From NCBI GenBank assembly GCA_964035545.1, contig OZ037767.1:20042628-20106627 (forward strand): DNA of 64,000 nt, in the 5' to 3' direction. Below the pieces are notes generated by a model. The model did no database searches. It had not been told where the DNA came from and was given only the letters and a program-made list of their open reading frames with translations. The translations under genes were made by a program, and so were the position numbers. The DNA comes from Bugula neritina. Taxonomy: Eukaryota > Animalia > Bryozoa. The first letter of the stretch is position 1; every line of letters begins with the position of its first letter. Below, piece by piece: positions 15,901 to 21,900 of this stretch.

Positions 15901-18900
15901 ATTAGTTTTTTACATCTCACAAAAGCTTATTCGTAGTTTTCAGATTTCCGCAATATTGGATGTAATAAAAAGCTTTATTTGATTATTTCATGTTACTATT
16001 GTAGTAATTTGTGCAATTACTGAGCGTGAGTTATTTACTTGCGTATAGTTAGCTGGTTATTCTGTTATCAATTACTAAGGTAGCTGTCGAGTAATTATAT
16101 TTATTATCCACAATAAAGCATAAACCAAACATCACATCAAATTATCCTATACAAGAGTCAACTACTAACACATGTTACTACTACAAGCCTCCGCTTACAA
16201 CAACGTGATATAATGTTAATAACCCGGGAAGTGTCACGTGACTCGGAAGCATATCTTCCGGAGCTGCTAATTGGTTGCTACATAAGAGTCTAAGTATTCC
16301 AAGAATAGGGAGAGGGCGATTCCTGTATTTGTACTTGCACTACTCACTACACCGTCCCCCCCAGCAGAAAGCCCTACTTTCTGATAACACAATAAAAAAC
16401 ATAATGAAAAACCATACAATAATCCAAAAAGGAAAATATACATAAGTAAACCCACAAAGAGTAAGAAAAGAAATAGTTAAACACGACAACGTTTACATTA
16501 GAAGACAACAGGGTGATCGATCACACACATCTAGTCAGCTATTAAGAGAGAGGGTGCTTACCAGCACGCGGGCCAATGTCGGAGCGCTCGTCACATCCTA
16601 AACGAGCTATAGCTCAACGAAGGTGCCTATCCCAGGCATTCTCATTGGTTGGACTCTGCTTCTTGTAGCGACCGTGCTCTGTGTCGAGCCTGTCGGGCCC
16701 GTAGCCGCCTCTTCAGTCGCCCTACTGAGTCCTTCAACTGGTATAGACCTGTCGTCGTATCCAGCAAGTCAGGGGCAAGTTGTGTGAACTCGGCTTGCAG
16801 TCTTAGAAGCCGCTCTTCTACGTTAGCCAGCTGGCTAGGCCTTGGTGGGGTTATAGGGGTCTCCGTTATACGGGATATGGTTGTTTCTTCTACTTCTGGG
16901 GTGTTGCTAGGGTTGACGGGGGTAGGAGGTGGGCCCTGAACCATAGGGGACTTATGGCGGGCAGATAGTAACAGTACGTGAAACCCTGACGTTAGTGCGG
17001 CCAGGGTAATAGCCTTCCTGATGACTGGCTTGATGGCATCCAGGTATAGGGGGAAACTGTCTTCATCAACAGTGTGGTTCTCTCCGGTGAAGCAGCTTAG
17101 CTTATGTACTGTCACGGGATACGGGTAGACGTCGTGGAACCCGCAGGGACAGAAGTGGAGTAGGAAATGGGCATCTACATGTAAACGCAAGGAGCGGTGC
17201 GACGGGCACTCCTCAAAGCAGACCTGGCAGGTTCGGTGTGGTCCACTGGGTCCCCAGGCTTCTTCAATTCTCCTCTCTGTTGTGGGTGACACCCAACGGT
17301 GTCGTCGGCGGAGTACTACTGGTATGCCATTCTCCATTACAGGCTCTTCTTCCATAGACAGAGAGGTTGGCTGGTCCCGTGACCGGGAGGTGGTCACTCG
17401 AGTGTGATCTGAAAGAGTAGCAGTGTTAAAGATTATACACTGAGGCACCGTCGGCGTGTACAGCCTGACCGGTACTCTGTTCAGTTACACTCGTGAGATT
17501 CAGGCTAATGAATAGTTGATGGAGAACACACTCGCTATGATAGATTATTTAAAATCAAAGTCGACGTGTATTCCCACCACTGTTTATCATTATCGAATCT
17601 CCAGCTAGCTAGTGTAGCTGACTGATGCAGTCTAGTTATCGTACCAAAAACATAATTAACTCACCCTTCGATCCAGAATAGTAAGACATTTTGGAATGAA
17701 AGTGGTAACTGATTACTGTTTACTGGCACGTCTACTCTCGACTGCATCAACATAGGAAAAGACCGGACAGCGTGGTTGTGAAACGTGACTAGGGCTTTTC
17801 ACTTCCAGCGGACGAATCTCGTGTGAGATTCCGCCGAGGCAAAAGTCAATATTGTCGTGGTGCTCACAACTCCCACGCTCTGCTCTCTTCCCCTCACGGC
17901 GTCTCGTAGGACGTTTGACCGCGCCCTTAACGGAACGTGGTAAGTCCTTGCGATACGCGGGGCCTGGCTTAGGACACCGTTTCCCAGGTGTCGTCACTAA
18001 CCAAGGCGGTTTACGCACCCGTGGACGGTCACGTCGCTTGGGTGGTGCCTTCAGCCAGTTTGTGACAAATGGAGCTTTCCCAGTACCTCCGCACGGAGCC
18101 CCTCCCTTGGGGGGTTTTTGCACTTCCAGGTCGGTTCCTGACCTAGGGAGTGGCGGTGGCAGCTTGCACGCTAACGGCGGTGAGCGCACTTCCCTGAACG
18201 GGTGTGGCTTTTCCTGCCTTGCCACTGCTTTGGGTTGCATACTAGGCGGTTTGTCGACCAGGTTAGCAGTCTCCGTCTGCCCGGGTCTTTCTGCACTTTG
18301 CCTTCGCCGCCCTACCTCCTCAGTAGGGGGGCCGTGCTTACTGACCCGGCAGACTCCGCACTGCCCAACGCTGTGTCGTACATCACGCTCCATGTGAGGC
18401 CAATACCACCAGAGTTGTAGTTCGGTGAACACCTGTTGGGCTCCCCCATGAGCCTGTTGGTGTACCTCTTCTATCAACTCTTGGCGGATGGCGGCAGGAC
18501 AGAGGGTCCTTTTCTGGTCTAGCTGGTGGTGGTTATCGGCCAAGGATATGGTCAGTAGACCATCCGGCCCGATCCGCAGTGCGTTCCAACTTCGGCAGTA
18601 CAGCTGCCACTCAGGGCAGCCCTGCTTCCGTTGTCTGTCACTGGGTCGTCTCCCTTCCCGTTTCATTCGATAGACGTCGGCTACCACCCCTGGAATAATT
18701 TCCTGGAGGTGTCCTAGCTCCTTGACACCATCGGTTGAGACAGGTTCGGCGTGGGGGTCCTGTGCCACTTCTGGTTCTATAGGTATAGCAATGTTATCTC
18801 TCTCACCTTCATTCAGTGGAATGGGTAGCTCCGTGCCGTCTTCTGCCATGACTGCTATACGCAAGATCCCACCGCTGCCACCACTGTAGTAATTTGTGCA

Positions 18901-21900
18901 ATTACTGAGCGTGAGTTATTTACTTGCGTATAGTTAGCTGGTTATTCTGTTATCAATTACTAAGGTAGCTGTCGAGTAATTATATTTATTATCCACAATA
19001 AAGCATAAACCAAACATCACATCAAATTATCCTATACAAGAGTCAACTACTAACACATGTTACTACTACAAGCCTCCGCTTACAACAACGTGATATAATG
19101 TTAATAACCCGGGAAGTGTCACGTGACTCGGAAGCATATCTTCCGGAGCTGCTAATTGGTTGCTACATAAGAGTCTAAGTATTCCAAGAATAGGGAGAGG
19201 GCGATTCCTGTATTTGTACTTGCACTACTCACTACACTATTTTATACAAGTAGGCAATTTTCCAATTGCAGCATAGCTTATACACTGTTCTGATATTACC
19301 TCTAGTAATGATATTAAAGCTTGGAGGTAGGAATTTTCTATTTCCACTATGGAATGGACTATGAGTCTTCGTTTCACCTGAAACATAGCATATGCACCCG
19401 TCTATATATACAAATTATATGCAGTGCAGCGTGCTAGTGATTGATGATAGAGAAAAATCGCATTCTGGAATGACTTATAGCAACTGTTGACTTGAGTTCC
19501 AAGAACGGACTTGAGACTGTAACTTGGTGAAACTAACTTGTTTTTCTGTCAGTCCTTCTGGACAGGGAGGAAGCTGGGGAGAGGGGTGTTTCTGGAGATC
19601 AAGTTGAAATGACTTCCCTCTGACTTGTCTGTCTTTTGGTTTCTTTACCCGTAGAGATTCGGTTAGCTTCTGTAGGAAACCAGGCGGCTGGAGCTATGAA
19701 ATGTTGAGTAAAATCTGCTATGACAGTTTCATTATTAGAAGTAAGGATCACATATTCATGTAGGCAATATTACACACAAAGCTCAAACATCTTATTTCAA
19801 CTCCTGTTGGCTGAAATTGTGTTCTAATCAATAAGACAGAGAAATGATTTAATTAATAATAACACTTATTATAGCTGCTAAAGTTCTGGTGAACAAAATT
19901 GATTTCTAATAGAAATGATAAACTTTTCTCTGCATGGCCATTAATTTAGTTTGAAAGAAAAGCATGGAAGTCTTATTTCAACTCTTGTTGGTAAAATCAA
20001 ATTCTAATCAATAAAACGTAGAGAATTAATTTATTAATAGCAATTATAGCTGAGAGAGGTTTGATGAACTAAATACTGAATGATCAGTCAATAAAATGTC
20101 ACCATTCATTTATCACTTGTGAATCACCAAAATTTTACTAAGTTTAGGTTTTTCCTGAAAGCAGCTAAAACATGCCAGTGAATTACATGAATTTAATTGC
20201 ATGGTGGAAACAGCCAATAGACTAGAAAACTGCTATATTAATGTAATAACATGAAGACAACCAGATAAGTCACAAACTAAAAGCTACACTGCAAGACTGT
20301 TCAATGGCTTAAGGTGTACACAACCCCTACTCCAGACATAGTGTCTCTCTGTACATTAGGAGTTGTGTAAAAGAATGCAGCTTCAAAACATGTTCTTTGT
20401 TAAGATAAAGTTAATAATCTTACAGACTGCTTGGTAAACCTGCATATACAATGCATCTAATTTTTCTATTTCCATAATTGCATGAAAGAATATGACTAAT
20501 TTTTCTATTCTCCTTTTGGGCAACATAATTATACACCAGAACACTAACAAACTTGTTCTCTTCATGATTGTCATCCTGAAACACTGAAATTATTACCAGT
20601 AGAGGTTTCTATGAAGGTAAATGGTGAAAACGTCAAAAATTTATTTTTATTATTTAGTGCTTTGTAGACATGCAGGGAAAGCAAGACAGTTTTATCAAAA
20701 GTATGCTGTAACTTTCTATAGCATTAGTTTGAGGTTGAGGAATTTACTCAGTATACAACTCCATTATGCAGGAATACTAGCTAAAAAACGCATTATATGA
20801 AGTAAATATACCAGTTGGATATTGTTGTGTTTTTACCTGCTAGAGTATACTTTTCAGTGTATGAAACGCTATATATTTTAATAGCAGCTTTCGGGTAATA
20901 CAGGAAGTGCTTCTGCTAACTATAGATGCCTTTACTACAAACTTGCAACTTTCCCATAAATATTATTCTGAAAAGGTCATGCAGTGCTAAGAGTTTCTTA
21001 GCCTCTGGACCTGCTTTGTCACACGTGACACCAGCAACATGTGTTCAGTGCTGCAAACTGTACAACAACAGCTCTTCTCAACGTAGCCACTGGTCTCTGC
21101 AGAGTTTGAACTACTAGTCAAGCTCTTCTACGCACTAGTGAGGGAGATACATGTAGTGATGGAGAAAATACCAGAAGCTTGTGTTCTAGATTAAAGATGT
21201 AGCAAAAGAAGCTTGAGAAAATTTTGATCCACACTCGAAACTAGACCTTATAAAAGGAGTAATATTCTTGAGAAAATATTCATAAAGACGATAAAAAACT
21301 TAGACTATTGAAATTTATCTGTTAGCCTACCTGATGTTAAACCAACAACATGTTGAATAAAAAAGAATGGAAGGAAGTAATCTGTTTCCGCTGAATCGAA
21401 TCCATTATCTGCCTTTACAAAGGATAGTACATATAATATATTCTAGTTCTGAGACTCAATCTAACAAATTGGCAACTTCCTCTGCGGTATTGACTAAAAC
21501 TTCCTTGCACCCACCTCTTTGAAACTTCCATCTACAGCGTCAGAGTAGTCGACCAACTCGTAAATGGTGTCTTCTGATGTAACAGTGTTGGAGCGAGTAA
21601 GGGGAGTTGCCGGCCCCGTCGCATTCTCTAGTGTGTGATACATGTCATTGGTTACCATTGGCACTGGCGGAACATCTATGTAACATATACAGAGACAGCT
21701 ACAACGCAGTAACACACAAACATTTACACGTTACACTTGTATAGCAGAAACACTATTTTGATAAACTCTTATCTGGTTAGAATTCTCAGGCATATGAGAA
21801 ACCACCATATTAACTATATTAGAAGTTCCCTTGCATATTACAACTGATGTGCATGAGAAAATCCTAAATGTTTTAGATTATGTTTTTAGAGAAATGCATG

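Follow-up and report, generated by a model that had tools for sequence, protein, structure and literature searches.

A 64,000-nt window of the Bugula neritina genome (contig OZ037767.1; the window is the whole stretch of DNA analyzed, and all coordinates are positions within it) carries on its minus strand a non-autonomous, Gypsy-type long terminal repeat (LTR) retrotransposon with two open reading frames (ORFs), ORF1 and ORF2 (Table 1). This element is probably a recent insertion from a Gypsy lineage that lost its enzymes long ago, is copied by a complete relative and has kept ORF2 as a likely nucleic-acid-binding regulator.

The structure proposed for the element in the original prediction, an earlier reading of the same DNA, stands. 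The two LTRs show no difference (352 of 352 positions, which bounds their divergence at below 0.85%), and the CTAT target-site duplication (TSD), the 18-nt primer-binding site (PBS), which we take to be of the tRNA-Leu type, and the polypurine tract (PPT) are all found in the sequence, so that the element shows the typical features of Ty3/Gypsy elements (TG...CA LTRs, PBS, PPT and a TSD of 4-6 bp). Contigs of three sequencing runs were matched to the window: X1, which may come from the source of the window itself, and X2 and X3, which are related to it, with flanks ~10% diverged; X5 (plankton) gave scattered short pieces only and was left out of the comparisons. In X1, both flank contigs have no differences from the window at a depth of 116-127 and end in the LTRs. 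In X2 and X3, position 15991 is joined to 19246, i.e., the site is empty, which confirms the insertion; the view that it is recent is upheld. The summed contig depth inside the element in X1 (2,000-33,000, compared with 116-127 on the flanks), although not equivalent to a copy number, identifies the element as a member of a repeat family; no second copy is present inside the 64-kb window. A Pfam search of the window proteins detects no capsid, protease (PR), reverse transcriptase (RT), RNase H (RH) or integrase (IN) core (rve) domain in the element, as had been claimed. Thus, it lacks the components of an autonomous element (its own Gag capsid, PR, RT, RH and DDE integrase), and the view that it is non-autonomous and multi-copy is upheld, given that the deletion of the integrase core recurs in relatives 49-91% alike and in contigs of all three runs. 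This presence of the core-deletion junction in several copies (X1, X2, X3 and many proteins) is one of the features expected of a family mobilized in trans. The element fits neither TRIM/LARD, which have no coding capacity, its ORF2 being under purifying selection, nor TR-GAG, which have an intact Gag, only 25 Gag codons being left compared with the 316-aa Gag of a sister form.

By its composition, ORF1 is a gag-pol remnant rather than a new gene. A Pfam search identifies Integrase_H2C2 at aa 118-172 (E = 3e-11), and ORF1 was also matched to foamy-virus integrase. Dissection with 35 + 3 relatives assigns aa 1-25 to Gag (22/25 identical to P0139/P0144, 316 aa with a CCHC zinc knuckle), aa 26-207 to the RNase H-integrase linker and the H2C2 domain (53-57% alike to the RT/RH/rve-bearing P0142, P0127 and P0134), and aa 208-378 to the tail that in P0132 comes after the integrase SH3 domain; all junctions in the ORF1 of the window are in frame. 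Of the "two intact protein genes" originally described, therefore, ORF2 holds as a selected gene, whereas ORF1 amounts to an H2C2 domain and 25 Gag residues in a remnant. The last 46 codons of ORF1 (17716-17850) are better kept than the rest of the tail (up to 35/46 in distant relatives) and may include a cis element or a further splice acceptor near 17742; no joint among the contigs or the proteins of relatives supports such an acceptor. The middle of ORF1 (18001-18668) has best pieces in X2 and X3 that are 95.5-98% alike, compared with ~88-93% for the intron flanks, an excess that may reflect constraint, introgression or transfer. A 202-aa antisense frame (17789-18397) has no Pfam match and was taken as a shadow frame.

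Fragments of relatives display the Pol order PR-RT-RH-IN in the parent: P0142 comprises RT-RH-H2C2 followed by the start of rve, P0134 comprises H2C2-rve-SH3, and P0140/P0141 have PR ahead of H2C2. The relatives form a nested ladder of in-frame deletions, from forms with rve and SH3 (P0134) through forms in which the integrase core is gone and SH3 is kept (P0124) and those in which SH3 is gone as well (P0113, P0125) to the shortest forms (P0107, P0110, P0140, P0141 and the window); P0140 and P0141 keep the protease and have lost RT and RNase H. Among the 17 deleted forms, similarity is 49-91% (mean 64%), compared with 70-88% among 10 rows labelled intact-type, a label that is imperfect (P0123 shows neither flank of the deletion, and P0120 is considered below). 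In a tree of the 30 rows that cover at least 110 residues of the domain, built with no outgroup and with 9 of the 38 relatives excluded for shortness or lack of the domain, all 11 intact-type rows are on one side of a 99/98 branch. The core-deletion junction (~18228) is bridged in X1 by a contig of 88 nt at depth 1635, compared with 116-127 on the flanks, and also in X2 and X3 (95.5 and 96.5% alike). Given that this deletion is common to relatives only 49-91% alike, the enzyme-less lineage appears to be old. The case that the original prediction named against itself, a one-off, decayed product of a single recent deletion with frames open through inheritance, is compatible with the Gag junction, which is seen in no second copy, but is contradicted for the core deletion, the junction of which is shared by several runs and diverged proteins. 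In addition, there is no near-identical autonomous parent among the relatives (those bearing RT, RH or rve are 49-59% alike over the shared domain), and when drift to 65% identity is simulated, ORF2 stays open in <2% of runs and ORF1 in 0/300. This explanation is therefore highly improbable.

The window copy is a mosaic. Its Gag leader (22/25) and last 46 residues (43/46) are nearly identical to a sister form, the middle is only 52-57% alike to P0140, and ORF2 is identical to P0003 at 230/231 positions; nearly identical ends with a diverged middle are the pattern expected from template switching. The sister form (P0139/P0144, P0140, P0141, P0003) has the 316-aa Gag with the CCHC knuckle and a protease with a DSG motif, without RT, RNase H and the integrase core. 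Equally sized contigs (3853, 4770) and a size sum of 4844 suggest that these parts belong to one 4.8-kb element with ORF2. A segment of ~130 residues between the protease and the linker, possibly a decayed dUTPase-like segment although it has no Pfam match, is kept in P0129, P0130, P0140 and P0141 despite the loss of RT.

As judged from DNA copies of both splice forms, ORF2 is spliced like env. According to the splice-site scan, Gag codon 14 is followed by a donor (18807/18806), and joining it to an acceptor predicted at 17409/17408 keeps the frame and gives a 269-aa product. P0014, found after this prediction, is a natural 261-aa protein, called on DNA, in which 14 Gag residues lead straight into the ORF2 exon; its simplest origin is reverse transcription of a subgenomic RNA. 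From a second donor, at 17664, a GT-AG intron of 256 nt runs to the same acceptor, and its removal gives a 263-aa product from an in-frame ATG. This intron is missing, at its exact length, from one X3 contig, and one X1 contig has the same intron-less joint with GT-AG ends (short side 29 nt, the letters between not read). The pattern [LF][SL][DG] imposed by the acceptor (pyrimidine-YAG) is present in 31 of the 33 relatives that reach it (101 examined), and ORF2 DNA adjoins deleted-type ORF1, with ORF2 downstream, in P0088 and P0125. Thus, the lengths first given for the two stop-free ORFs, 378 and ~260 aa, are right for ORF1, and for ORF2, a 280-codon frame, are corrected to a spliced product of 263 or 269 aa. 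An ORF3 expressed from a spliced subgenomic RNA, one hallmark of errantivirus-like elements, is accordingly present at the DNA level (P0014 and the intron-less contigs); the other, a glycoprotein with a signal peptide and a membrane anchor, is not.

The ORF2 protein belongs to a family with 102 relatives at 45-100% identity and 136 clusters at 50% identity. The family domain combines C-x2-C-x12-H-x3-H with C-x-C-x12-H-x3-C and is followed by a variable linker and, in the relatives inspected, by a C-terminal helix. All eight putative zinc ligands are kept in 36 of 47 relatives, and the structure model of the zinc domain has a predicted local distance difference test score (pLDDT) of 78.7. No Pfam family scores above the cut-off for the ORF2 protein of the window, and zf-C2H2_4 does so only in the relative P0200. 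The best Foldseek matches, none better than E = 1.3, are C2H2 (DNA-binding) proteins; neither PDB (full model) nor BFVD (domain model) yielded a match at E = 0.001, and the best VIA-align Z was 3.7. Among 20 distant clusters checked, the three organism-named members (P0157, P0208, P0244/P0278) are all bryozoan, two from Watersipora subatra (annotated isoforms) and one from Bugula neritina; the zinc domain is doubled in P0157 and P0200. These bryozoan genes may have arisen by domestication of copies or be the host gene from which ORF2 came, and the ORF2 tree, in which they are far from the group of the window, leaves both options. The position of ORF2, its Gag-internal splicing of the kind described for env of the idefix subclade in the available part of PMC12992720, and its long coiled-coil-type helix would also suit an env substitute or a particle component that serves spread between cells or hosts rather than regulation. 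However, ORF2 lacks both a signal peptide and a membrane segment (its hydropathy peaks at 1.43; 1.6 is reached by 3/45 close and 0/17 distant relatives), the spacing of its Cys and His residues is typical of cytoplasmic or nuclear zinc fingers, and its C-terminus is basic, which makes this role very improbable.

The substitution patterns indicate that ORF2 is under purifying selection. Among its exon variants (15 of the 40 listed out of 445), 10 are synonymous and 5 non-synonymous; behind Met44, with two upstream rows dropped, 9 of 13 are synonymous (P = 0.001-0.006). Mismatches in the zinc domain are conservative (mean BLOSUM62 score +0.11 compared with -0.64 +/- 0.22 for simulated drift; 86/97 rows), and the coil is 82% alike compared with 42% for the linker. 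For ORF1, the variants (35 of the 40 listed out of 70) include 12 synonymous, 23 non-synonymous and no stops, and the H2C2-domain mismatches are intermediate (-0.34 compared with -0.63 for drift; 9/18 rows above the drift range); apart from a residual constraint on the zinc domain, ORF1 looks neutral. In all these counts, the rows are related rather than independent and the searches favor open frames. The suggestion that the proteins are under selection thus proves right for ORF2 and, the zinc domain excepted, is unsupported for ORF1.

The residual constraint might be taken to mean that ORF1 is active as a dead integrase N-terminal domain that binds the helper integrase or particle and either tethers the satellite RNA in cis or dampens the helper. 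Consistent with this, the H2C2 ligands are kept in 67/70 cells of the deleted forms compared with ~0.58 per site under drift, the pairwise score is the same in deleted forms and in intact-type rows (-0.20 each), every junction in the window is in frame, and there is the precedent of the IAP 1delta1 fusion, which acts in cis according to the accessible part of PMC6466679. The limits on the row counts just given apply here as well, one ligand is lost in three relatives and the whole domain in P0130, and the recent variants are neutral, so that an active ORF1 seems rather unlikely. An alternative that dispenses with both proteins is that ORF2 works for the autonomous parent only and template switching refreshes the 3' ends of the satellites, neither ORF serving the satellite. 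The mosaic structure and the neutral ORF1 variants are what this scenario would produce. Nevertheless, we consider it unlikely: the near-identical 3'-end donor (P0140 type) itself lacks RT and the integrase core, the splice donor and acceptor are both retained, and the ORF2 proteins P0007 and P0023, which are paired with the deleted-type ORF1 proteins P0109 and P0121, are ~65% alike to that of the window and yet full length. The pairing, by identical contig sizes (3 exact ties in 41 rows compared with 0.52 expected), is suggestive only; near-equal sizes (within 2 nt, e.g., the rve-bearing P0127 and ORF2 P0087) were rejected as linkage, being expected by chance.

Besides the limit on summed depth noted above, several observations speak against an old lineage that retains a selected regulator. 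The ORF1 variants are indistinguishable from drift (P = 0.11-0.35), and the ORF1 tail looks neutral (-0.85 compared with -0.82 for drift; 0/15 rows above the drift range). The X2 and X3 copies are decayed near ORF2 (a 37-nt deletion). Part of the selection on ORF2 may have taken place in autonomous copies, with recombination afterwards, and the data do not tell in which copy type, enzyme-less or autonomous, it acted. P0120, which lies inside the intact-type clade, appears, when read by eye, to be core-deleted out of frame, so that, with no outgroup in the tree, a single origin of the core deletion is not established. The Gag junction at 18774 is bridged by none of the contigs listed, some X1 contigs running on there into other sequence, and this deletion may be young or private. 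Searches with the ORF2 alignment against metagenome, viral and genome contigs, with the integrase P0134 against viral contigs, and with the mid-distance ORF2 group against viral and metagenome contigs gave no confirmed locus of a relative, and hence neither an ORF2 behind an intact integrase nor a helper with the same LTR and PBS. Finally, the role of ORF2 is deduced from the type of motif, with no Pfam family and no significant fold match behind it.

The mechanism that we propose starts with two RNAs driven by the LTR, one genomic and one spliced. The genomic RNA, with all cis signals, would be packaged by the Gag and protease of the sister or the parent and copied with the RT and integrase of an autonomous relative, for which protein fragments are the sole evidence here. 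ORF2 would descend from the 3'-terminal part of the autonomous parent, and the Gag stub would be kept as the carrier of the ORF2 start codon and splice donor. That the spliced RNA yields ORF2 would explain why even the smallest form has retained the start and donor in Gag. Taken jointly, Gag and protease from the sister, RT and integrase from the autonomous relative, an inherited ORF2 and a stub kept for its sake make up a quite likely scenario. ORF1 would be open mainly for a cis reason, its translation to the native stop stabilizing or routing the genomic RNA, as for IAP 1delta1; that it is mostly a cis-acting open frame, in which the H2C2 domain still experiences some selection, appears evenly poised between true and false. 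With its two zinc sites, basic coiled coil and no membrane anchor, ORF2 might bind LTR DNA or element RNA and raise output; on these features we predict, with somewhat less than even confidence, a regulator (a transactivator or anti-silencing factor) of its own element. Foamy-virus Tas, lentiviral Tat/Rev and VANC of VANDAL are small accessory proteins, often made from spliced RNAs, that bind the DNA or RNA of their own element; the likeness of ORF2 to them is an analogy of role alone, with no sequence or fold match. A quite improbable extension is a divided system in which one form gives RT and integrase, one gives Gag and protease, and the smallest gives the ORF2 regulator. In this "complex" bryozoan Gypsy clade, the env slot would hold a zinc-finger regulator like Tat/Tas or VANC that activates the family or relieves host silencing, and the enzyme-less satellites would be its main carriers; the parasite would then pay its helper.

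Table 1. Features of the Gypsy-type element and of the adjacent host exon (positions within the window)
Feature	Position	Strand	Basis or remark
Whole element	16000-19236	-	3,237 bp, non-autonomous Gypsy-type
TSD CTAT, left	15996-15999	.	sequence repeat comparison
TSD CTAT, right	19237-19240	.	sequence repeat comparison
5' LTR, 352 bp, TG...CA	18885-19236	-	352/352 identical to other LTR
3' LTR, 352 bp, TG...CA	16000-16351	-	352/352 identical to other LTR
PBS, 18 nt	18866-18883	-	sequence
PPT, G-rich, short	~16352-16362	-	sequence
ORF1, 378 aa: Gag leader, RNaseH-integrase linker, H2C2 domain and Pol tail, in frame	17713-18849	-	Pfam and relatives
Gag codons 1-25; first deletion junction ~18774	18775-18849	-	22/25 identical to Gag P0139/P0144; X1 contigs branch at 18771-18774
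Integrase H2C2 zinc-binding domain, 4/4 ligands present	18334-18498	-	Pfam
Pol C-terminal tail past second junction (~18228; DDE core and SH3 deleted)	17716-18228	-	relatives; contigs of X1, X2, X3 bridge junction
ORF2 stop-to-stop frame, 280 codons	16642-17484	-	ORF scan
First exon (14 codons + 1 nt) of putative subgenomic RNA of env style; GT donor at 18806	18807-18849	-	donor scan; joined form is natural protein P0014
Alternative 25-nt first coding exon of ORF2; ATG 23 nt behind ORF1 stop	17665-17689	-	frame restored by 256-nt splice
256-nt GT-AG intron; acceptor 17409/17408 used by both donors	17409-17664	-	X1, X3 contigs
Main exon of ORF2, at the ORF3 position of the parent; encodes zinc domain, variable linker and coiled coil	16642-17408	-	relatives and models
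Predicted C2H2 finger (C86 C89 H102 H106 of P0002)	17167-17229	-	conserved spacing, model
Predicted second zinc site CxC-x12-H-x3-C (C112 C114 H127 C131)	17092-17151	-	conserved spacing, model
Predicted 62-residue helix, coiled-coil type, basic end	16648-16833	-	structure model
Frame with host RhoGEF exon, starting inside domain	15543-15821	-	PF00621, E 2.6e-06, profile positions 20-81

The element is located in an intron of a host RhoGEF gene, upstream of the exon frame at 15543-15821 and on the same strand as the gene, the exons of which span ~9600-15800 on the minus strand (PF00621 in 3 frames). It adds two donors and one acceptor to the sense strand of this intron and could disturb host splicing. 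Elsewhere, the window includes a Tubulin-binding cofactor C exon (29779-30588, minus strand; TBCC_N, E = 1e-23), a 199-bp segment (23505-23703) that is 91% alike to its own reverse complement, a hairpin or an element resembling miniature inverted-repeat transposable elements (MITEs), and abundant intronic minisatellites (67 rows).

Among known systems, TelKA2n of the rotifer Adineta vaga has the same overall plan. Its ORF3 is a paramyxovirus-type env glycoprotein, intragenomic variation was described as mostly neutral, and the ORF3 types given in that work are env, GDSL esterase and DEDDy exonuclease, whereas the ORF3 of the window is a soluble zinc-finger/coiled-coil protein with purifying selection across a diverged family (PMC5408684, from the part available). 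Mouse IAP 1delta1 is likewise non-autonomous, and is highly active, with an internal deletion that keeps a gag-pol fusion open, for which action in cis has been reported; unlike the element described here, it is derived from a betaretrovirus by one 1.9-kb deletion and has no separate ORF3, compared with a long-term deletion ladder and a second, selected gene in the window (PMC6466679, same limitation). In insect errantiviruses, env-F is a third ORF behind pol that is expressed from a subgenomic RNA, with the first exon inside gag for the idefix subclade; ORF2 shares the position behind pol and the splicing from gag but lacks a signal peptide, a fusion peptide and a membrane anchor, and its carrier is devoid of enzymes (PMC12992720, in the portion accessible). 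Plant TRIM, LARD and TR-GAG elements and the wheat Fatima gag+protease subfamilies are non-autonomous, in some cases coding, and reshuffled by template switching, coding non-autonomous LTR elements being common in plants; the Gag+protease sister (P0139/P0140 type) is built like the Fatima subfamilies, whereas the window copy keeps an accessory gene and no capsid (PMC13570524, 10.1101/363192, as far as their available text goes). Given that coding non-autonomous elements (TelKA2n, IAP 1delta1, TR-GAG) are already known, coding capacity alone is not novel. Within the open literature, and as far as the searches reach, the new aspect is a zinc-finger/coiled-coil ORF3 without a Pfam model, expressed in the manner of env and retained through stepwise deletion in a long-lived lineage. 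The open-literature searches turned up no account of this ORF family; Repbase, Dfam and most subscription journals were outside the search, so that absence from print is not established.

Non-env accessory genes of animal LTR retrotransposons are little characterized, and it is an open question what allows some enzyme-less elements to persist longer than their helpers and to exceed them in number. This lineage shed every enzyme stepwise and yet kept ORF2 and both splice sites, which singles out ORF2 as the part worth keeping and makes it a small candidate for a retrotransposon-encoded regulator. The protein family that it represents comprises at least 136 clusters, has no Pfam model and includes members annotated as host genes in two bryozoans.

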